Assembly (NCBI GenBank): GCA_040387195.1
Contig: JAZKEF010000011.1
Coordinates: forward strand, 172,077 to 236,076
Source: Bacteroidota bacterium
GTDB lineage: Bacteria > Bacteroidota > Bacteroidia > UKL13-3
Length of the DNA stretch: 64,000 bases
Direction: 5' to 3'
Shown: piece after piece, positions 221-38,297 of the stretch
Layout: each line of letters opens with the position of its first letter
Numbering within the stretch: the stretch's first letter is position 1
Position numbers and translations under genes: made by a program
The notes under the pieces: model-generated
The model's input: the letters and a program-made list of their open reading frames with translations, nothing else
Told to the model about the DNA's origin: nothing
Databases searched by the model: none

Positions 221-3200
221 CTATTTTAGCAATGTTACATTATCTTTAACGGTATGTATTGATCCATCCCAGCCGGTGTAGGTAATGAGGTATACAAACA
301 CATCGCAGGTAACAGGATCATTCATAAATTCATTGGTAAAGAGGTGGTGTTTATCCTGTGTCTCAAATACCAGTTGACCCCATCTGTTGTATAGTTTAAG
401 ATGGTAATCCTTCACAAATACAGGCTTTGGATTCCAGTTGTCGTTCACATTATCATGATTGGGTGTAAACGCATTGGGTACATGCAGCAAAGGGGCCTGA
501 ATCAATTCAACCGTATTGGATACACTCCTGAATGGGGAATTGTTTTCGGAAGCCTCAATGGTGTAATAATATAAACCATTTTCGATGTTCAATTCTTTGT
601 CTGCCCAGTCGGTGGATTTGTAATAGGTGGTATTGGCTACAACAGGATCAATGGTTGGTTCCTTTCTGATGATGGCGTACTCGTTAAGTCCTTTTTTCCA
701 ATAGTCGTAATCGTTCCATTGCAATGTATGCACAAACGGACGGCTGTTTCCTTTGAGTAAAATACTGCAGGAGTGAAAAGACTGAGGGTTGCTGATTCCG
801 CAATCATTGGTTTGCTGCAACTCATAACAGTAAACACTTTTGTGAACGTCTACATGCTCATCCGCAAGGAACGTGTCGTTTACATCAGTACGTGTTGCAT
901 ATAAGGCGTAGGAGGTATTATTGATTTCATCTTTCCGGAATATATTGTACCTAAAAAAGTCGCCTTCCGCACTTTTTTGCCATTGCAGCAGAATGTTCTT
1001 GTTTTCCTTTACTGTTGTTGTATAAATATAAATGGGAGCAGGAGGGGATATATTTTTGATAACGGTACACGATAAGGTAGCCGAATCGCCTGTAACCTCG
1101 CAGGTATTAATGGCATAGGCTGTGTAACAGATATTGTTTTGCTCGTTGTTAATGGCGTCCTTGTCTTCAATCATAAAGGCATCAAGGTTGGTTACCACGG
1201 CCAATTGATCCCATGTGCCGTTTGTGTTTTTGCGAAGCAATACATAACGCGAAAAATACTTACCAGGGTTAGCTGGTTTACTCCACCTTACCATTGCACT
1301 GTTGGGACCTGTAGAACGAATGCATTGCAACACAGGCGGAGGTGGGGGCGGAGGGAGCAATACAATAATTTTAACAGTAGCTTTCTGGGTTCGCGATTGC
1401 GGACACTGATTATCACGAACCAATAATTGCAACAAAATAGTATCGGTGCCTCGTTTCGTGTCATCACATAACGAACGCCATGCAATAGAGTATGTTGCTT
1501 TTTGCAATCCGGCAATATGTTGAAAGGATAATACCCTGTTGGTTGCAAAAATATTTCCTCCGGCAGAGATAAAAACAGAATCGAATGGATTAATGGATTC
1601 CGTATTGAATACATATGAAAGAGTATCGGTAGCTGTTACATACAGGATTGTATCCGCGTGGTTAAAGAGTGCAAGATTGGTATCATTCTGGAACAGGGAA
1701 CAAATATTGCGGGAAGGCACCGAACCGCTATCACAGGTATTCACTGTTCGGATAAAGTAACAATAGTTTTCAGTGAGATGATTGTAAGCGTTGGTATCAA
1801 CATACTGCGTATCGGAAACCAGACTGGTGGTTCTGAACAAACTAAAAGGAGCGCTTCCGTTTTTTCGGTAAATATCGTATTGTTTAAAATACTTGAGGCT
1901 TGAAGGTGCAGTCCATTTTATCACCACCGTTGAGTCATTGCGCGTTTGCAAACATTGCGGATAAGGAGGATCCAAAACAGGTGGAGGGGTTACCAGGATT
2001 TTGATTTTACCGGTTGAGATATTGGGAATAGGGCAAGCATTATCGCTTGCCGTAATTGTGATAAAAACGGTATCAGGACTGATATGCGAACATAACGTCT
2101 TCCAGTTAAGCGTTGCACTTGCAAAGTTTTTACCTTTACCCATAAGCACTGTAGCGGGATTGTTGCTGATGCCGAATACATCTCCGCTCACTGTGGCCGT
2201 TACCGAATCTCCATCGGAGTCAATAATGTAGGTTGTGAATGTCAATTCATCAGTGGCACGGATTGAAATAAAGGTATCTCTTATAATAGGAGCATTGTCA
2301 GATGTATTCAAACTGAATTTGAACAATGCATTGTTGCATCCGCCAAGGTTTGGATTATTCGGGCGTTTTCCATTATTTGTTCTGCAGTAGGCATCAGGTG
2401 TTGTGGGGAAATCGGAATACCCACCGCAACCTGCACAAACAGATTGGTAAACTACCCCTCTTTTATCAAATCTGCTGGTACCCCCATCCACATGCTCATG
2501 GCTGAAAGCACCGCCATAATAGGTTGCATAGGAAAGCTGCTTCAAATCAGGTTCAAATACGGCAAGGTAAAAATCGCTGCCGTCTGTACTTTTTTGAAAT
2601 CCATTTAACGTTAATGGCATGCTAAAAGTACTGCTTGTTGCACCATTATATCCATTATTGGTTGACCCTCCCCAACCTGCAACATAAACACGGTCGCATT
2701 TATCAACCAAAAAAGCTGAGGGGGAGAGTCCGGGCGAAGCGGCATTAGGAGCCCCGAAAACAGAAGATAACCGGATGGAATCAAGGTTATTGTTTAGGCT
2801 TGTAATAAATTGTTTCGCCCGAACATTGTTATATACTGCGCCTTTTACAGGGAAGTTACCTTCCGTTTGGCCCGTAACAAAAATGTTATTCTTGCTGTCA
2901 ATATCAATAAAGTAAGCCTGATCATATAAAGGAGTGCCAAGGTAAACCAGCTTTTGCAGGCTGTTGCCTATAGCCCCGATCTTGGCCACAAAAGCATCAA
3001 CATAACCTTTATAACTCAATGCTCCTTGAAACTTGCCAATATTGGGGCTTGACGTTCCTCCACACACAAAGATGGAATTGAGAGGATCTATAATCAGACT
3101 GTATGCGGCATCATCACCCACTCCTCCAAGGTAACTCGAAAACAGAACAAAGGAAAGGTCGGCCGTTAGCCTGAATACACATCCATCCTGATTGCCTCCA

Positions 3201-4552
3201 CCAAAAGTCGGTTGAAAGGCATTTGCAATAGGATACCCGTCTGCCATCTCCGATTCGGTAACAGAAGCCACGCACACATTTTCATTTTTATCCAGTAAAA
3301 TGGAACCCCTGTAGCAATCACCATAGTTGTAGGATAGCGGACTAATGGAGTCAAAAAGGCCAACGGTTTTTCCATTGATACCATCATTCTTACCTCCCCC
3401 CCAAAAGGTTGAATACCTAAGTGTCTTTCCATCAGAAGATAAGCAGGACACGAACATATCATAGGCTCCATTATAGCTTCTATCATGGGCAGATGTTGTT
3501 GTTGGAAACGTGGAAGAGCTTGTTGTTCCCAGAATATATAGATCACCGGCTTTGTTGCAAATAATACTATGTGGCTGTTCATCACCATTCCCTCCAAGAT
3601 AGGTGGCATATAAGAGTTCAGTACCCGTCTCGTTAAACTTCAGTATTCCTGCATCCCTAGATCCTCCAAGTGAAAAATTAAGCTGATATGCCCCGAATGT
3701 AACCGGAAACCCTGCGCTGAAAACGGTACCTCCGGCAAATCCATTTCCGAGTTCATCATATGTTCCGGTGTACCCAAAGTTATCGGCAACCGAGCCGGAG
3801 AATGTACCGAAGATGATATCAGGATCAATAACAAGCGCCTGCTCTTTGGAATAGGAACCAAGCCTGAAGCTCACTTCAGAACCCGACATGTGATATGAAC
3901 ATTCAACCTTGTTTTGCTGTTGAAATGCAACTGGAGTCTCTTCCTTAATATTGGCAACACTTGTTTGAATGAGCAAGCTGTTTCCTTGCAGTTGGATCTT
4001 GTCCTGTCCTTCGTATTTCAGCTTAATGAGGGATGGGTCTGCCCCCGGCTGCACTAAAAAGTTTAGTTTGAGATAACCCTCCAGTCCAATGATTTCGGCA
4101 GCAATACCGGGATAGATATTTTGGAGGATTACACTTTCATAAGCCTTGCAATGCGAAGCCCATTGTGTTTGGTTGCCTATATAGTAGTTGTAATATTCGC
4201 TGTATACAGCTCCTTTATGGACACTTACTCCCGCGGATTTGCTACCTTTAAATACCATGCGGTAATTATGGGCATTTACCAGTTTGTTTTTTGCTGTCGA
4301 GTGGTTGAGTTCATGTATTTGCTGCTCATCAACCAAAGCATACACCAATCCTTTCGCAGTAATAAAAACGTCACCTCCGGGAATATTGGCTTTAAACAAA
4401 ACCTCGGCATTCCACTGTCCTTTGTTCTCTATAAGTTTGATGTTTCCTGACGACTTAACCGGTGCCGGCCCATCATGGGCCATACCTTTTGCTCCACTTA
4501 TTGCAATAAGCAATAGCGTCACCAACAGACGATATGTATTTCTGATAATCAA
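221..4552 (-). CDS. Giant secreted T9SS cargo protein, 1443 aa. It has an SBBP/beta-propeller-like region, repeated Fn3-like modules joined by poly-Pro linkers, and a type B (gliding-motility-associated) C-terminal sorting domain.
   Basis: N-terminal signal peptide MIIRNTYRLLVTLLLIAISGAKG. Recurring module PPPP(PPP)VL..C.....(N/D)S..V.W..P......F..Y.(L/I)(Y/F)RK.. appears at least 4 times. The C-terminal about 90 aa (NAFTPNHDNVNDNW...YNRWGQLVFETQD...) is the classic CHU_C/type-B T9SS CTD. Confidence 0.8.
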   Translation of the reverse strand: MIIRNTYRLLVTLLLIAISGAKGMAHDGPAPVKSSGNIKLIENKGQWNAEVLFKANIPGGDVFITAKGLVYALVDEQQIHELNHSTAKNKLVNAHNYRMVFKGSKSAGVSVHKGAVYSEYYNYYIGNQTQWASHCKAYESVILQNIYPGIAAEIIGLEGYLKLNFLVQPGADPSLIKLKYEGQDKIQLQGNSLLIQTSVANIKEETPVAFQQQNKVECSYHMSGSEVSFRLGSYSKEQALVIDPDIIFGTFSGSVADNFGYTGTYDELGNGFAGGTVFSAGFPVTFGAYQLNFSLGGSRDAGILKFNETGTELLYATYLGGNGDEQPHSIICNKAGDLYILGTTSSSTFPTTTSAHDRSYNGAYDMFVSCLSSDGKTLRYSTFWGGGKNDGINGKTVGLFDSISPLSYNYGDCYRGSILLDKNENVCVASVTESEMADGYPIANAFQPTFGGGNQDGCVFRLTADLSFVLFSSYLGGVGDDAAYSLIIDPLNSIFVCGGTSSPNIGKFQGALSYKGYVDAFVAKIGAIGNSLQKLVYLGTPLYDQAYFIDIDSKNNIFVTGQTEGNFPVKGAVYNNVRAKQFITSLNNNLDSIRLSSVFGAPNAASPGLSPSAFLVDKCDRVYVAGWGGSTNNGYNGATSSTFSMPLTLNGFQKSTDGSDFYLAVFEPDLKQLSYATYYGGAFSHEHVDGGTSRFDKRGVVYQSVCAGCGGYSDFPTTPDAYCRTNNGKRPNNPNLGGCNNALFKFSLNTSDNAPIIRDTFISIRATDELTFTTYIIDSDGDSVTATVSGDVFGISNNPATVLMGKGKNFASATLNWKTLCSHISPDTVFITITASDNACPIPNISTGKIKILVTPPPVLDPPYPQCLQTRNDSTVVIKWTAPSSLKYFKQYDIYRKNGSAPFSLFRTTSLVSDTQYVDTNAYNHLTENYCYFIRTVNTCDSGSVPSRNICSLFQNDTNLALFNHADTILYVTATDTLSYVFNTESINPFDSVFISAGGNIFATNRVLSFQHIAGLQKATYSIAWRSLCDDTKRGTDTILLQLLVRDNQCPQSRTQKATVKIIVLLPPPPPPPVLQCIRSTGPNSAMVRWSKPANPGKYFSRYVLLRKNTNGTWDQLAVVTNLDAFMIEDKDAINNEQNNICYTAYAINTCEVTGDSATLSCTVIKNISPPAPIYIYTTTVKENKNILLQWQKSAEGDFFRYNIFRKDEINNTSYALYATRTDVNDTFLADEHVDVHKSVYCYELQQTNDCGISNPQSFHSCSILLKGNSRPFVHTLQWNDYDYWKKGLNEYAIIRKEPTIDPVVANTTYYKSTDWADKELNIENGLYYYTIEASENNSPFRSVSNTVELIQAPLLHVPNAFTPNHDNVNDNWNPKPVFVKDYHLKLYNRWGQLVFETQDKHHLFTNEFMNDPVTCDVFVYLITYTGWDGSIHTVKDNVTLLK

Positions 4553-4622
4553 GGCTTACTGACAAATTTAACCTAAATCGGGTAATTGAGGCTATTCTCT
4601 TCTAAATTTACAGGGTTAAAAA

Positions 4623-5647: not shown

Positions 5648-6493
5648 ATGAAAAGGCAAATTTTATTCACCATTACCGCATGTATTTCTCTTTTAGGATT
5701 TGGGAAAGTAACTCCGGAGTTTTCTCCCAATCAGGATGTAGCATTATGCGGACCCACAGATGTATTCTTTGTATGTACCGCTCCATTAGATCCCGACAAT
5801 ATTTGGTGGGATTTTGGAGATGGAAACCTGGGTACAGGTCTTAATCCCACTCATCGCTATACTACCACCGGAGTATATTCCGTAAAAATGATTGTAGAAA
5901 AAGGGGGGATTAAAGACAGCGTAACCAAAATTGATTTTATTACCCTCAAACCAAAACCGGTATCGGCATTTAAGTCCGATATTATGGAAGTACCGGTAGC
6001 ATTCCAGCGTAAGTTTAAGTTTAACGGAGAAGCCAATGCCGATAGTGTGACTCAATACAATTGGATGGTTAACGGAACAGCTGTTGCCGGTAATGGCACC
6101 ATGACGCATACCTTTCCTGCCAATGGAGTTTATTTGGTTTCGCTAACAATTACCAACAGTGAAGGCTGTTCGGATGAACACGCTGATTCAGTAACCATTG
6201 ATGATGACGACCAGCCGACAGGAGTCCCCACCACCTCAGCTTCTGATAAGTTTTCAGTATCTGTTGTATTGAACCAGCCGTTGATTGTAATTAACCGTAA
6301 CGCTGCATTGCAAGAAGAGGCAACAATAAATGTCCTTGATATTACCGGGCGCGTAGTGGTTCGTACAAAAATGCATAAAGGGGAATCATCCATCCGGATG
6401 AAAACGGATGAACTATGGCCTGGAGCTTATATAGTGGAGCTTAGCAGTCAAACGTTCAAGGCTGCCAAGCGTTTTGATAAGATTATGTTGTAA
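5648..6493 (+). CDS. Secreted PKD-domain protein with a type A T9SS C-terminal sorting domain.
   Basis: Signal peptide. PKD signature WDFGDGNLGTGLNPTHRYTTTGVYSVKMIV and a second PKD-like repeat (NWMVNGT...VYLVSLTITNSEGCSDEH). C-terminus ...INVLDITGRVV...GAYIVELSSQTFKAAKRFDKIML is a Por_Secre_tail-like CTD. Confidence 0.8.
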   Translation: MKRQILFTITACISLLGFGKVTPEFSPNQDVALCGPTDVFFVCTAPLDPDNIWWDFGDGNLGTGLNPTHRYTTTGVYSVKMIVEKGGIKDSVTKIDFITLKPKPVSAFKSDIMEVPVAFQRKFKFNGEANADSVTQYNWMVNGTAVAGNGTMTHTFPANGVYLVSLTITNSEGCSDEHADSVTIDDDDQPTGVPTTSASDKFSVSVVLNQPLIVINRNAALQEEATINVLDITGRVVVRTKMHKGESSIRMKTDELWPGAYIVELSSQTFKAAKRFDKIML

Positions 6494-17798: not shown

Positions 17799-18080
17799 TT
17801 ACCGTAATACATCCCCATACTCCGGAGTTTTATCAAATACACTTTTGGCAAACGGACATAAGGGCAAAATTTTAAGGTGCATTTTCCTTGCAAACAAAAC
17901 CACAGCCTCCAATAGTTTTTTACCCGCACCTTGCCCTTTAAGCTTATCCGATACTTCGGTGTGATCTATGATAAACATGGATTCACCCGCCCAGGTATAG
18001 GTCATTTCGGCTAGGCGTTCACCTTCCAGTTCCATATAAAAAGCTCCCTTTTTGCCGTTATCTTCGTGTTGTATTTCCAT
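17799..18080 (-). CDS. Small GNAT-fold N-acetyltransferase (YjdJ-like, 93 aa).
   Basis: ...SDKLKGQGAGKKLLEAVVLFARKMHLKILPLCPFA... is the acetyl-CoA binding Q/RxxGxG/A motif. Confidence 0.65.
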   Translation of the reverse strand: MEIQHEDNGKKGAFYMELEGERLAEMTYTWAGESMFIIDHTEVSDKLKGQGAGKKLLEAVVLFARKMHLKILPLCPFAKSVFDKTPEYGDVLR

Positions 18081-18131
18081 GAGTTTACTGTGTATTATTC
18101 GTCACAATAATACATTTCAGTTGCACCAATT

Positions 18132-19535
18132 TCAATTGCTTTTGTACAATTTTTGGGTGAATTGCTGTGGTGTTGTTATTCCGCTGATGTTTAAAATATA
18201 CAAACCATTTGTTAAATCGGATAGAAGCTGCGTTTGATTGTTTGATACGGTAGATTGTTTCATCAGCTTGCCTTTCATATTATAAATACTGAGCAGGAAA
18301 TCGCCTTCAGGTAATTGTAACGTGATGCACTCTGTTGCCGGATTTGGATATACCGATATGCCTGCAGAAGCATAAGTTTGTCCTAAACCTGTTGTTAAGG
18401 GAATGAGTGTTAAATTTCCATTGGCATCAAATGGATTCGACCAGCGAGCATTGGTGTAAATATCTGTTCCACTTAGGGTTCTTAAAAAGGCAATCAAAGC
18501 ATTTTTTTGATCAGTTGTCAGGTTTAGACTTTGTCCTTGTCCGCCCGGTCTTAGCAGTTTAGGGTCAAGATTGGTGTTTAAGGGAATGGCCGGGATGTTA
18601 TTGTAATGGTTAATTACCTGTAACAAACTTTTAACTTTTCCATTGTGCATAAACGGACCATTGGGAATTCCGTTTGTATTCACCACATCACGCAAGGATG
18701 GTGAACGTGTATTGGTTAAATCAAAAACAGTTGTATCCGTTGCATCTTCAATAATTCCATTGTTAAGTGTGTTCGGAACAATATCAAATTCGGGAGCACT
18801 GTGGCATCCATTGCAACCGGCTCCTCCGTTTCTTGCGGCAGGAGCAGACATAAATAAAATTTTACCTTCATTCTCCTCGGTTGTAAAGTTTGGGAAATCA
18901 ATATTATCACTGGATACCTGTGCACGGCCCGCATCGTATTTCGAGTCGTACGACTGTATGCTGCGGATGAATTGAGCGAGGGCATTCTGTATTTTGGTTT
19001 CGGTAATTTCGGTGCTGCCATATACAAACTGAAACAGCTGTGGGTAATACGAAATGGTTTGCATTTTGCGAATAAGTGAATCCAGACCAGGGTCACCGTT
19101 GGTATTGCTAAAGCCCATTTCTACGTGGTTTTGGATGGGTTGTGTGGTTTGATTTTCCAAACTTGTTGCTCTTTCATCCCAAAAGAATTTTGTTTCATTG
19201 CCAAACCGGGCATTCACCAATCGCATCGAATGCCGGCCGGTTAAGCCTCCGTTGAAACCAACACTGAGGGTGGCTGTATCGCCAAACGCAAACTGCTGTT
19301 GGTGACAGCTTCCGCAGGCAATGGTATTGTTTACCGAAAGTTGTTTGTCATAAAACAATACCCGCCCCAGTGTTGCACCTTTATCGCTAATTCGGTTATT
19401 GCCGGGTGTATTGTTTTTGGTAATATATGCCGGGTGGGTTTGAGATCCATATGCTATAAGGTTGTTTAAATCAATAGTTGCTGCTGTGAGAACCAACAGT
19501 ACTAATGTAGCTAAAATGAGTGGTACTTTTTTCAT
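18132..19535 (-). CDS. Di-haem cytochrome c peroxidase (CCP/MauG family) fused to a type A T9SS C-terminal sorting domain.
   Basis: Two CxxCH motifs (CGSCHQQQFAFGD and CNGCHSAPEFD). CTD ...VYPNPATECITLQLPEGDFLLSIYNMKGKLMKQ...LYILNISGITTPQQFTQKLYKSN. Start trimmed to the internal Met (MKKVPLILATLVLLVL signal peptide), because the track ORF carries a 51-aa N-extension. Confidence 0.8.
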   Translation of the reverse strand: MKKVPLILATLVLLVLTAATIDLNNLIAYGSQTHPAYITKNNTPGNNRISDKGATLGRVLFYDKQLSVNNTIACGSCHQQQFAFGDTATLSVGFNGGLTGRHSMRLVNARFGNETKFFWDERATSLENQTTQPIQNHVEMGFSNTNGDPGLDSLIRKMQTISYYPQLFQFVYGSTEITETKIQNALAQFIRSIQSYDSKYDAGRAQVSSDNIDFPNFTTEENEGKILFMSAPAARNGGAGCNGCHSAPEFDIVPNTLNNGIIEDATDTTVFDLTNTRSPSLRDVVNTNGIPNGPFMHNGKVKSLLQVINHYNNIPAIPLNTNLDPKLLRPGGQGQSLNLTTDQKNALIAFLRTLSGTDIYTNARWSNPFDANGNLTLIPLTTGLGQTYASAGISVYPNPATECITLQLPEGDFLLSIYNMKGKLMKQSTVSNNQTQLLSDLTNGLYILNISGITTPQQFTQKLYKSN

Positions 19536-28670: not shown

Positions 28671-29498
28671 ATGTTGAAAAGAACTATATATATCATTGTT
28701 GCCATTACCTTTGGTGTGGTATTGCTCGAATCCTTTATGCTTAAACGTCCGGATGGAACAGTTCCGGGCCATACCGGTTCTCCGGGAGATTCATTGAAAA
28801 ACTGTACGGTTTGCCATGGAGGATTGGCTACCCCAATTGATGGATGGATTACGTCCGATATTCCCGCTTCAGGATATGTACCGGGTGTTACATATACGAT
28901 TACGGCAACGAACACAGAAGCGGAAGGTACCCGGTTTGGTTTTCAGGTTTCACCGCAAAATATACAGGGTGATTTACTGGGAACCATTATAGTTTCGGAT
29001 ACGGTGAAAACTCAATTGGTAGGCAATGGAAAGTATATTACGTACACAAGCAACGGTGTTGATGGTGCCGGTTTTAATACCTGGGTGTTCAAGTGGAAAG
29101 CACCTGTTGGCGGAACCGGAAAAGTAGTGTTCTACGGAGCATTTAATTCCAACTTTAACGGACATAAAGATGGCGATAAAACATTCCTCTCCACATTAAC
29201 GGTGAATGAAGCGGGTACAACCGGTTTACAATCGTTCTCTTCCGATGATACACCTTTTGTATTGTACCCACAACCTGCATCCGAAAGGGTGTTTGTTAAT
29301 ATCGGCACAACCTATTCAGGTAAACCATCCATCCGTTTAATGGACATCAATGGCAAAACGGTATCTGAACTTGTAGCGGATGAAACAGCCAACGGAATAC
29401 TGAGCTTATCGCTTACAGATATTCCGCGGGGAATCTATTTTATGGAGTTGCAGATAGACGGAAAACAGGAAGCTGTGAGAAAGTTGATGGTGAATTAA
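28671..29498 (+). CDS. T9SS type A cargo protein with a single N-terminal CxxCH haem-binding motif and a beta-sandwich body.
   Basis: N-terminal anchor/signal. GHTGSPGDSLKNCTVCHGG. CTD ...LYPQPASERVFVNIGTTYSGKPSIRLMDINGKTV...GIYFMELQIDGKQEAVRKLMVN. Confidence 0.65.
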   Translation: MLKRTIYIIVAITFGVVLLESFMLKRPDGTVPGHTGSPGDSLKNCTVCHGGLATPIDGWITSDIPASGYVPGVTYTITATNTEAEGTRFGFQVSPQNIQGDLLGTIIVSDTVKTQLVGNGKYITYTSNGVDGAGFNTWVFKWKAPVGGTGKVVFYGAFNSNFNGHKDGDKTFLSTLTVNEAGTTGLQSFSSDDTPFVLYPQPASERVFVNIGTTYSGKPSIRLMDINGKTVSELVADETANGILSLSLTDIPRGIYFMELQIDGKQEAVRKLMVN

Positions 29499-36229: not shown

Positions 36230-38080
36230 CTATTGTTTAATGATTTTTTGAGTGGATACAACGGTTCCGTTTAACTGAATCGTTGCGAAATAAATACCGG
36301 CTTTGAGTGTCGCCATATCAAGAGAAAGTGTGTTCATTCCCGTTGAGATGTTTGCAGGCAAGTTAACCAATTGTTTTCCTGTAATATCATACAAACCCAC
36401 CAATGCTGTTCCCGATACCTTGCTGTTGAGCATAACCGATGCTTCTGATTGAACAGGATTCGGGAATAATTGAGGTATGGAATTCAATAAACTGTTTTCG
36501 GCAACTCCGGTTGAAGTAGTAGTATCTTCAGTCGCGCTCGAAATACGGTAGTAACGCATCAATTGTCCACGGATTTCACCATTTGCAAAAGAGGTGGTAT
36601 GGATGTTTACATACGTACTGTCATTTCTGCGCATGGCAATTGAAATGCCATTATTGAAAGGAGAGTACTTGTAACTGCCATTGTTGGTAAACGGATCTAA
36701 ATCCAACGCAACACCGCCCGATTCACCTTTTTTACCGTAGTGAATATGTCCGGCAGTTACTGTTCCCTGCAAACCATCAAAGGCAAGCATGGTGTGTAAA
36801 TTGGTGCGGTCTCTGTCAAATGTTGCAATTGCTGTTCCTTGTGCACCACTGTTGGTTGTGGCTTGTGCGCCATTCAGTTCGGCAATAAAACCTTCACGTG
36901 CCAAACGGAATACTTGTCCGCGGATTTCTCCTCCCGGATTGCTATCGGTATGCACTACAAAGTATAAACTGCCTTTTAATAATTCACTGATCAATACAGG
37001 TGTCAACGGACTCACGGCATCGTTTTTTGTCCACATGCCCGTAAGCATATTATTGTTGGGAGTCAATTCCTTTACCACACCACCGCTTTGGTTTGGCTCT
37101 CCATTGTGGAAGTGAGCAGCCGCAGCATTACTTGTTAATCCGGTATACAACACATTGTAACGTAATGTATCCATTGTATTGTTTAACCACAACGTAGATA
37201 CACCATATCCTGTTGAAGGTTTAGCCAATGTTCCACCACCCGCAACAATAGCGGCTGGATTTAACCATGCATCAAAACGTAAGGTTTTGGTTGAGCGCAA
37301 TTGTCCACGAATTTCACCACCGGCAACTGTTGTAGTGTGTAAGTTTAAATAAATACTATCCGACATTAACGCTACCATCAAATCAGGCCAGTTGCTAACG
37401 CTCACACCACCCACCATTGACATACTGTCGGCTTGAATAGTTGGTTCCAGCCCAAGCGCTACACCACCGTTTGCACCCGGTTTACCAAAGTGTAAATGCG
37501 CGGCAGTAAGTTTTCCGGTCATTCCTCTGGCAACTACACGAACGGTTGCTGTATCACCTTTCATTCCAAAATTAATGGCTGCATGTCCGACACCCGGTGA
37601 GCCCGAAGCTGCCTGTGTTCCATCCAGACTGGCTGCATAACCCCAGTCGGTTTCCAGTTTTACAAATCCTAAAATCTCTACCGCAGGATTCATGGTAGTA
37701 TGAACGGCTACATATAAGTTGCCTTCCATAAAATCAGTCATCAATCCTGTTAATTGCGTTCCGGTGATGAACGAACGAACGGTGTTTCCCAATACTTTAC
37801 CGTCAAAATCAATAATCACGTTACCACCGGTACGTTGGTTGTGAATATGGTAACCGGTAAGCGGGCTGCTCATTTTGGCAACGCTGATGGTGAAATACAT
37901 GGTATCGCGTGGTGAGTTCAGCATAAAGGCTGCCACACCATTTCCGGTGGTTGTTAATCCTGCCGGTGGTTGTAATCGGGCAGAGAAAGTAAGTCTGTCG
38001 GCCAAATGGTCGGCTTTGGTGAGTGTAGCTCCTGCAAGTAAGGCAGCTCCCAATACTAAAGATCGTAATGTTGTTTTCAT
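36230..38080 (-). CDS. Secreted protein with four CHRD domains and a type A T9SS C-terminal sorting domain.
   Basis: Four repeats of the CHRD signature (GYHIHNQRTGGNVIIDF, AAHLHFGKPGANGGVALGLEP, AAAHFHNGEPNQSGGVVKEL, AGHIHYGKKGESGGVALDLDP), each followed by ...GxLYxNxHTxxxxxGEIRGQ. CTD ...LFPNPVQSEASVML...GIYFATIQLNGTVVSTQKIIKQ. Start trimmed to MKTTLRSLVLGAALLAGA. Confidence 0.8.
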   Translation of the reverse strand: MKTTLRSLVLGAALLAGATLTKADHLADRLTFSARLQPPAGLTTTGNGVAAFMLNSPRDTMYFTISVAKMSSPLTGYHIHNQRTGGNVIIDFDGKVLGNTVRSFITGTQLTGLMTDFMEGNLYVAVHTTMNPAVEILGFVKLETDWGYAASLDGTQAASGSPGVGHAAINFGMKGDTATVRVVARGMTGKLTAAHLHFGKPGANGGVALGLEPTIQADSMSMVGGVSVSNWPDLMVALMSDSIYLNLHTTTVAGGEIRGQLRSTKTLRFDAWLNPAAIVAGGGTLAKPSTGYGVSTLWLNNTMDTLRYNVLYTGLTSNAAAAHFHNGEPNQSGGVVKELTPNNNMLTGMWTKNDAVSPLTPVLISELLKGSLYFVVHTDSNPGGEIRGQVFRLAREGFIAELNGAQATTNSGAQGTAIATFDRDRTNLHTMLAFDGLQGTVTAGHIHYGKKGESGGVALDLDPFTNNGSYKYSPFNNGISIAMRRNDSTYVNIHTTSFANGEIRGQLMRYYRISSATEDTTTSTGVAENSLLNSIPQLFPNPVQSEASVMLNSKVSGTALVGLYDITGKQLVNLPANISTGMNTLSLDMATLKAGIYFATIQLNGTVVSTQKIIKQ

Positions 38081-38297
38081 GAGTGTTGATATTAATTCGA
38101 AGTCATATACGGAAGAAGGGAGGGTGATGGATTTAGTGGATGCAAAAAAAATCAATACAGGATTCCTGAAACCGGAATGCAGATTCATATTTTTTTATCT
38201 GCACTTGAAAAAATCCTAATACCTTTGAATCCTAATCAAGCATCCACGATTGTGCTTTGAACAGTTGGTATTAAGTATTGTGGATCGAGCATCGAGT

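Follow-up and report, generated by a model that had tools for sequence, protein, structure and literature searches.

We analysed a window of 64,000 nucleotides from a Bacteroidota genome (contig JAZKEF010000011.1, positions 172,077 to 236,076), in which a gene on the minus strand, at 18132-19535, encodes a di-haem enzyme of the cytochrome c peroxidase (CCP)/MauG superfamily that carries a type A C-terminal sorting domain (CTD) of the type IX secretion system (T9SS). According to the list of open reading frames (ORFs) and the translation, the gene is complete and intact, running from an ATG at 19533-19535 to a stop codon at 18132-18134, and specifies a precursor of 467 amino acids (aa). The product is 100% identical to an NCBI protein (P0001) from a metagenome-assembled genome (MAG), where it is named 'cytochrome c peroxidase [Bacteroidota bacterium]'. 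From the N- to the C-terminus four parts were distinguished: a Sec signal peptide (MKKVPLILATLVLLVLTAAT; 19476..19535, minus strand like all parts of the gene given below), the catalytic core (residues 21-372; 18420..19475), a weakly conserved linker (residues 373-394; 18354..18419) with low predicted local distance difference test (pLDDT) values at residues 382-390, and the CTD (residues 395-467; 18135..18353). The signal peptide was recognized by inspection and its cleavage site is approximate; it has KK in its n-region, followed by a hydrophobic core of 14 residues, placed directly ahead of the conserved mature start TIDLNNL. A longer ORF beginning at ATG 19688, which would add 51 residues, was rejected: in all homologues the protein starts with the MKK... 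signal peptide, and the additional stretch would overlap a divergent ABC-F gene, whose orthologue begins MNYLSVEGL.

The original prediction had described an enzyme of CCP/MauG-like type, complete with two CxxCH motifs, that ends in a type A T9SS sorting domain, a description that hinged on the C-terminal residues matching sorting-domain models. They do so above the cut-offs of both models: Por_Secre_tail (PF18962) was aligned to residues 395-453 of 467 with 42.9 bits in Pfam (cut-off 27), and the NCBIfam model for T9SS type A domains, TIGR04183, gave 43.4 bits (cut-off 23). The domain displays the motifs YPNPA, GLY and KLYK, and is modelled by AlphaFold as a seven-strand beta-sandwich (residues 395-467, pLDDT 87-90). 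Furthermore, the family profile matched the CTDs solved on the F. johnsoniae translocon (8glk_D, E value 2.6e-7; 8glj_D, E value 8.2e-6). The scores exceed chance by far, and the protein is confirmed to bear a genuine type A T9SS tag. With a signal peptide at one end and a CTD at the other, export to the cell surface or into the medium is the natural prediction from the architecture, in agreement with the surface display or release originally proposed.

Three further proteins encoded in the window carry a type A CTD: a small PKD protein (5648-6490, plus strand), a protein with four CHRD domains (36230-38086, minus strand), and a choice-of-anchor V protein that is described below. Since these three proteins bear the same kind of tag, the host probably relies on a T9SS; none of the T9SS machinery genes lies within the 64 kb of the window. 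In addition, the C-terminus of a 1444-aa protein at 221-4555 (minus strand) resembles a type B (CHU_C) signal, by appearance alone. In full-text literature searches, whose coverage of the literature was partial, neither a CCP/MauG-family protein nor any c-type cytochrome was found as T9SS cargo; matches in articles on F. columnare and Aquirufa proved irrelevant.

The catalytic core was matched by Pfam, NCBIfam and PDB entries, with CCP_MauG (PF03150) scoring 150.1 bits (E value 9e-44; gathering score 25.6). Residue conservation was followed in three family alignments of 37, 79 and 88 members, the last set having been found with the catalytic core alone. Both haem-binding motifs are in place: C74-G-S-C77-H78 (19302..19316), which would hold the presumed peroxide-binding haem (haem 1), and C241-N-G-C244-H245 (18801..18815) for haem 2. 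The two motifs are invariant in the 37- and 79-member sets, and in the 88-member set C77, H78, C244 and H245 are invariant while C74 and C241 are kept in at least 90% of the members. Trp119 (19179..19181), within FFWDERA, aligns with the FWDGRA motif of bacterial CCPs (bCCPs) and takes the place of the Trp that lies between the haems in these enzymes and in MauG; it is invariant in the two smaller sets and conserved in at least 90% of the largest. The predicted distal-pocket segment of haem 1, Q129-x3-P133-x5-E139 (19119..19151), aligns with the Q..P.....EM block of bCCPs, P133 and E139 being invariant and Q129 nearly so in the 37- and 79-member sets. We take its spacing to be equal to that of Gln103, Pro107 and Glu113 in MauG. 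The AlphaFold model is weak at both haem sites, with pLDDT values below 50 at residues 77-130 and 241-252.

The residue that bears most on the type of enzyme is Tyr311 (18603..18605), which is invariant in all three alignments. In two canonical bCCPs its aligned counterpart is a Met, that of VETMG in the N. europaea CCP (1iqc) and that of VNTMA in S. oneidensis CcpA (3o5c), and profile alignments place Tyr311 opposite the Tyr of IDIYSE in MbnH (6e1c). That is, an invariant Tyr occupies the position of the Met ligand, which suggests that haem 2 is ligated in MauG-type His-Tyr fashion by His245 and, as predicted sixth ligand, Tyr311. The position of the distal His of bCCPs (Gly-His; His93 of MacA) is also altered, being Phe94 in the window protein, and there is no His in the family consensus. 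As a separate observation, the nearly invariant His102 (19230-19232) of the G-R-H-S-M-R-L motif lies opposite an Asn in bCCPs and MbnH, that of P-R-N-(S/A)-P-T-V, which presumably serves as a Ca2+-site ligand. In the literature, Met-His ligation of the six-coordinate haem marks bCCPs and Tyr-His ligation marks MauG and BthA, and the bis-Fe(IV) signature is lost in Y294H/Y463H variants (PMC6405878).

Model and structure searches lead in the same direction. The top NCBIfam matches were MbnH (TIGR04039) with 164 bits and MauG (TIGR03791) with 110.1 bits, both of which lie below the respective cut-offs of 362.85 and 443.85. The best PDB match by sequence was the MbnH structure 6e1c, with an E value of 1.3e-25 that improved to 1.7e-45 with the 79-member profile, whereas bCCP structures were matched by sequence at 1e-15 as against 1e-25 for MbnH. 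By fold, 6e1c was again the best match (Foldseek E value 1e-12, TMt 0.67), with the canonical peroxidases and MauG coming next. Assignment to the canonical bCCPs was rejected in view of the Tyr and Phe found at the aligned positions of the Met ligand and the distal His; membership in MbnH was rejected given the score below the cut-off and the absence of an adjacent mbnP, and membership in MauG given the score below the cut-off and the absence of a mau cluster. Altogether, the comparisons suggest that the window protein is a MauG/MbnH-type enzyme of a separate clade and not a peroxide-scavenging bCCP. The original label of CCP is accurate at the level of the superfamily but not in the sense of a canonical peroxidase, and as an annotation the database name 'cytochrome c peroxidase' probably misleads.

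The likeness to MbnH extends to the N-terminal P-x-Y-I motif, both CxxCH motifs, the P-x-M-H-D/N-G block and the Tyr at the Tyr311 position; for MbnH itself, Tyr ligation is presumed from the alignment. MbnH forms a bis-Fe(IV) state and turns a Trp of MbnP into kynurenine. It is a periplasmic protein with a chain of 388 aa and no such export domain, unlike the window protein with its T9SS CTD, and no MbnP homologue was found in the window by BLAST with the MbnP-like protein of one of the loci described below, L042 (best E value 1.5). With MauG (3l4m) the window protein would share the di-haem fold, the inter-haem Trp, the distal Gln/Pro/Glu set and a predicted Tyr-His six-coordinate haem; the locus has no mau operon and no gene for a methylamine dehydrogenase precursor. 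Two residues ahead of the second CxxCH motif the window protein has Ala239, at what we take to be the position of the surface Trp199 of MauG. The canonical bCCPs of P. aeruginosa, N. europaea, S. oneidensis (CcpA) and G. sulfurreducens (MacA) have in common with it the superfamily, the fold, the two c-type haems and the FWD-x-RA and EM motifs, but they are soluble periplasmic proteins without a CTD.

The fusion of a di-haem core to a CTD is a widespread trait of the family and not a peculiarity of the window genome. The best 120 of 7271 database matches all combine PF03150 with PF18962. A scan of one genome per species recovered confirmed relatives in at least 584 species genomes; the closest of the relatives listed there, with 76% identity, is from Bacteroidetes bacterium UKL13-3, an unclassified member of the Bacteroidota. 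A search of 1.84 billion cluster representatives with the core only returned 912 clusters at 50% identity with E values of 1e-30 or better. From these comparisons the family appears as a large, uncharacterized, Bacteroidota-centred clade that is closest to MbnH and MauG. The architecture, which had been regarded as unusual, is so in the literature but not in genomes: di-haem enzymes of this kind with a T9SS tag are widespread, named only by automatic annotation, and functionally uncharacterized. What would be new here is a MauG/MbnH-like clade defined by predicted surface targeting, the enzyme type itself being already known.

Orthologue forms and gene neighbourhoods were compared in the best 80 species loci out of the at least 584, with forms counted over 79 orthologues. 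A plain signal peptide combined with a CTD, as in the window protein, is found in 36-37 of the 79 (~45%), on contigs assigned to Saprospiraceae, some Flavobacteriaceae and Chitinophagales, and one Calditrichia MAG. Another 31 (~40%) lack the CTD and end just after the core (...KWSNPF); all of these short orthologues have a lipoprotein signal, with the lipobox Cys at position 16-24, followed by a polar tether of 21-27 aa. At least two Asp/Glu residues occur at positions +2 to +8 in 20 of the 31, as in CSKSEDNEY, CAKDDPTIP and CSDNSDDNY. Signals for export of lipoproteins to the cell surface in Bacteroidota have been described as C-X-K-(D/E)2, SDDDD and SDDFE (PMC5080379), which the acidic tether resembles without strictly matching them. 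A third main form, seen in eight orthologues on Verrucomicrobiota-binned contigs (labelled Verrucomicrobiales, Verrucomicrobiaceae, Prosthecobacter or Akkermansia/Akkermansiaceae, with one unlabelled), has a different conserved C-terminal domain of ~85 residues that ends in FYRFTYTP. This domain (..AAPGLTYQLE.S.DL..W...FYRFTYTP; loci L033, L036, L043, L057, L063, L065, L076 and L083) has no Pfam match, and could serve that phylum for sorting or anchoring.

In a rough neighbour-joining tree of the core, calculated without support values, the CTD forms are basal and paraphyletic, with three or more origins of the lipoprotein form, and the large Flavobacterium/Chitinophagales lipoprotein clade has the window protein as its sister. 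Of the 88 representatives from the core-only search, 33 have a CTD; other fusions involve He_PIG, fn3, Big_2, Calx-beta, dockerin and CARDB domains, a sulfatase in three representatives and MopE-type metal motifs in two. Since one export or surface device has repeatedly been exchanged for another around the same core, the family would seem to act beyond the periplasm, and this exchange is the strongest indirect evidence that points to it. Separately, one family member (L045, 7566-9041) carries 'Cu-binding' motif repeats of the MopE type (PF11617) as an N-terminal fusion, and at another locus a CTD protein whose repeats look the same by eye lies 0.9 kb from the family member (L046, 8206-9273, minus strand).

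Di-haem enzymes that work outside the periplasm have precedents. The surface-associated protein SACCP (MCA2590) of Methylococcus capsulatus is a di-haem CCP homologue that is co-transcribed with MopE and has been linked to this kynurenine-containing copper protein (PMC3912023), so that a surface enzyme of the superfamily was already known. SACCP sets a precedent for action of the CCP/MauG family outside the periplasm; it differs in being proteobacterial, in being exported by another route than a T9SS, and in being always located beside the presumed substrate gene, and it is likened here by description, not by sequence. The rubber oxygenases RoxA and RoxB are extracellular di-haem enzymes of the CCP superfamily whose substrate is an external polymer. 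They are dioxygenases of far greater size and with other haem environments, and the Pfam scan revealed no significant similarity of the window protein to RoxA or RoxB; weak matches to RoxA-like_Cyt-c were obtained for two clade representatives.

Gene neighbourhoods were examined for candidate partners. All-against-all clustering of the ORFs of the 80 loci and the window revealed no family-wide conserved neighbour beyond local synteny; the best recurrent neighbour, a FabG-like reductase encoded on the opposite strand, occurs at 16 of the 80 loci. Two further metagenome contexts shared no neighbour. Three patterns, all of them in a minority of loci, provide candidates. At five loci (L042, 4676-9068; L050, L059, L078 and L084), assigned to Flavobacterium or Chryseobacterium and of which four are MAG contigs, an MbnP-like gene, an MbnH-like gene and a gene for a YHYH protein with a CTD are followed by a family gene of the lipoprotein form; both members of the MbnP-like/MbnH-like pairs score below the NCBIfam cut-offs. 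In two more loci (L055 and L075; Ferruginibacter, Chitinophagales) a distant YHYH-like gene without a CTD starts 27-29 bp after the family gene. The YHYH protein is a candidate substrate, as are proteins with MopE motifs.

The second pattern is confined to two sister Saprospiraceae genomes (L051, 202-4012; L082, 633-4463), in which three consecutive genes on the same strand each encode a protein with a T9SS CTD. In order, these are the di-haem family member, a choice-of-anchor V protein with a CxxCH motif whose gene lies 12 bp downstream, and a GSDH-type pyrroloquinoline quinone (PQQ) sugar dehydrogenase. The cluster may be an exported electron-transfer module. The third pattern is seen in the window itself, which also encodes a choice-of-anchor V protein (28671-29495, plus strand), which is 275 aa long, has a type A CTD, and matches NF041895 with 80.7 bits (cut-off 42). 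The CxxCH motif (KNCTVCHGG) is kept without exception in 21 homologues with 45-78% identity, and the modelled domain is a beta-sandwich of Reeler-like fold, with a TMt of ~0.7 to the reeler domain of F-spondin. The protein is, beside the di-haem enzyme, another putative haem-c cargo of the T9SS in the window, encoded 9 kb from the di-haem gene on the opposite strand with unrelated genes between them. No description of a choice-of-anchor T9SS cargo was found in the full-text literature searches. There is also a loose link to copper or other metals: one choice-of-anchor V homologue with a CTD is encoded in a copper-resistance island among RND, P-type ATPase and multicopper oxidase genes (L085), and another directly after a cluster for a Rieske protein, a Peptidase_M75 imelysin and a DHOR di-haem oxidoreductase (L086, 8455-10834). 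These contexts hint that the proteins may take part in metal redox on the cell surface. The associations prove nothing for the window locus. Of the convergent neighbours, Endonuclease I genes with a CTD beside the family gene (L006, L007 and L014), the neighbour at L010 and a PKD-like neighbour at L025 were judged to be incidental synteny.

At the window locus, the di-haem gene is surrounded by genes for GNAT, ABC-F, Fic, peptidase and DUF2911 proteins. The immediate downstream neighbour is a 93-aa GNAT gene (Acetyltransf_CG, 17799-18080), and upstream lies the divergent ABC-F gene. No clear Bacteroidota -7 motif was seen by eye in the 151-bp upstream region. The 51-bp gap between the stop codon and the Acetyltransf_CG gene contains an AT-rich inverted repeat, GTATTATT-gtgacg-AATAATAC, at 18096-18117 (minus strand). 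This repeat may be a terminator or, alternatively, the GNAT gene may be co-transcribed with the di-haem gene.

With moderate confidence, we infer that the window protein is exported by way of Sec and the T9SS and then carries out an H2O2-driven, MauG/MbnH-type oxidation of an external substrate, which is probably a protein. The precursor would cross the inner membrane by Sec, and the two haems would be covalently attached, with folding, in the periplasm. The type A CTD would then direct passage across the outer membrane through the T9SS, after which the enzyme would be released or attached to the surface. There, H2O2 would react at the five-coordinate haem 1, with Gln129, Pro133 and Glu139 on its distal side, and one oxidizing equivalent would pass via Trp119 to haem 2, ligated by His245 and Tyr311, giving a bis-Fe(IV) state of the MauG/MbnH type. 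This oxidant would draw electrons from the external substrate, most likely from side chains of another exported protein. In a MauG-type enzyme the substrate is itself the electron donor, so that no dedicated electron-donor chain would be needed. The electron supply to a surface peroxidase, which the original prediction had left unexplained, would thus largely cease to be a problem, and the choice-of-anchor V protein is a candidate exported donor should one be required. Of the two roles originally offered, oxidative modification of an external substrate is better supported, by Tyr311 and by the affinity to MbnH and MauG, than peroxide detoxification.

Several points weigh against this interpretation. 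MauG-type enzymes normally adjoin the gene of their substrate, and here there is no family-wide neighbour and the window gene is flanked only by the small GNAT gene and the ABC-F gene. The His-Tyr assignment was drawn from sequence alignment, and the model is weak at both haem sites. The lipoprotein orthologues could face the periplasm, their acidic tether being only similar to the export signal. Moreover, BthA, which is Tyr-His ligated, retains good peroxidase activity with external donors (PMC6405878), so that by analogy a Tyr ligand would be compatible with a peroxidase role. The last point leads to a different explanation, namely that the protein is an extracellular or surface peroxidase which reduces environmental H2O2 with electrons from exported redox proteins or small reductants, for example from a PQQ sugar dehydrogenase via the mono-haem choice-of-anchor V protein, from Fe(II) or from humic quinols. 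The Saprospiraceae cluster, in which an orthologue is followed at 12 bp by choice-of-anchor V and GSDH-type proteins that are likewise tagged with CTDs, would fit such a chain, as would the invariant CxxCH of the choice-of-anchor V protein with a CTD in the window. However, the three-gene cluster is present at only 2 of the 80 loci, in closely related species, and in the window the distance, orientation and intervening genes separate the two partners. In place of the Met to which bCCPs owe a high-potential haem for electron entry there is an invariant Tyr, and MbnH and MauG are the best matches, MauG-type enzymes being described as poor peroxidases for which H2O2 serves as the oxidant. We therefore consider an extracellular peroxidase, including the donors named, to be possible but rather unlikely.

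It is also conceivable, with a lower probability still, that the enzyme matures cargo in the periplasm while this awaits export, the YHYH protein or other T9SS cargo being the substrate, that the CTD merely removes or co-exports the enzyme, and that the lipoprotein orthologues face the periplasm. Haem attachment and folding finish in the periplasm in any case, 31 of the 79 orthologues are lipoproteins without a CTD, and the arrangement of the YHYH genes, which directly precede the lipoprotein form at five loci after an MbnP-like/MbnH-like pair and follow the family gene closely at two others, would fit a periplasmic maturase. This explanation accords poorly with a CTD that scores above curated cut-offs and that almost half of the orthologues retain at a core divergence of 50-60%, with the many clade members that bear domains typical of extracellular proteins, and with lipoprotein tethers that are acidic like the surface-export signal; furthermore, no YHYH or MbnP homologue was found in the 64-kb window. 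That the protein might simply be an ordinary periplasmic bCCP, with a chance or degenerate resemblance at its C-terminus, is suggested by its database name and by the Pfam CCP_MauG match, but is very improbable: the CTD passes two curated thresholds, is modelled as a beta-sandwich and matches solved CTDs, the canonical Met ligand and distal His are absent at the aligned positions, and the scores of bCCP structures lie well under that of MbnH.

The MauG-type di-haem enzymes known so far are periplasmic maturases, each with one dedicated protein substrate. If H2O2-driven oxidation of an external substrate by the window protein and its relatives is correct, bis-Fe(IV) chemistry would reach beyond the cell in Bacteroidota that are abundant in fresh water, soil and the sea, and a clade of at least several hundred species would surface-target a MauG-type enzyme by means of the T9SS, a lipoprotein anchor or other C-terminal domains. 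Covalently haem-loaded proteins would then join the known T9SS cargo. The recurrent neighbours, that is, YHYH proteins together with MbnP- and MbnH-like proteins, MopE motifs, and choice-of-anchor V proteins together with a PQQ dehydrogenase, offer leads to metal acquisition or extracellular redox. More speculatively, and in our estimation unlikely at present, Bacteroidota may place haem-c redox enzymes outside the cell through the T9SS or the surface-lipoprotein route as an undescribed extracellular oxidative system, within which the bis-Fe(IV) enzyme would modify exported proteins such as YHYH or MopE-motif proteins, perhaps making metal (copper) sites, or attack external polymers. Such haem-c enzymes would be the first c-type cytochromes shown as T9SS cargo, and the members of the system would include the MauG/MbnH-like di-haem enzyme, the Reeler-fold choice-of-anchor V proteins with a CxxCH motif, and PQQ dehydrogenases.

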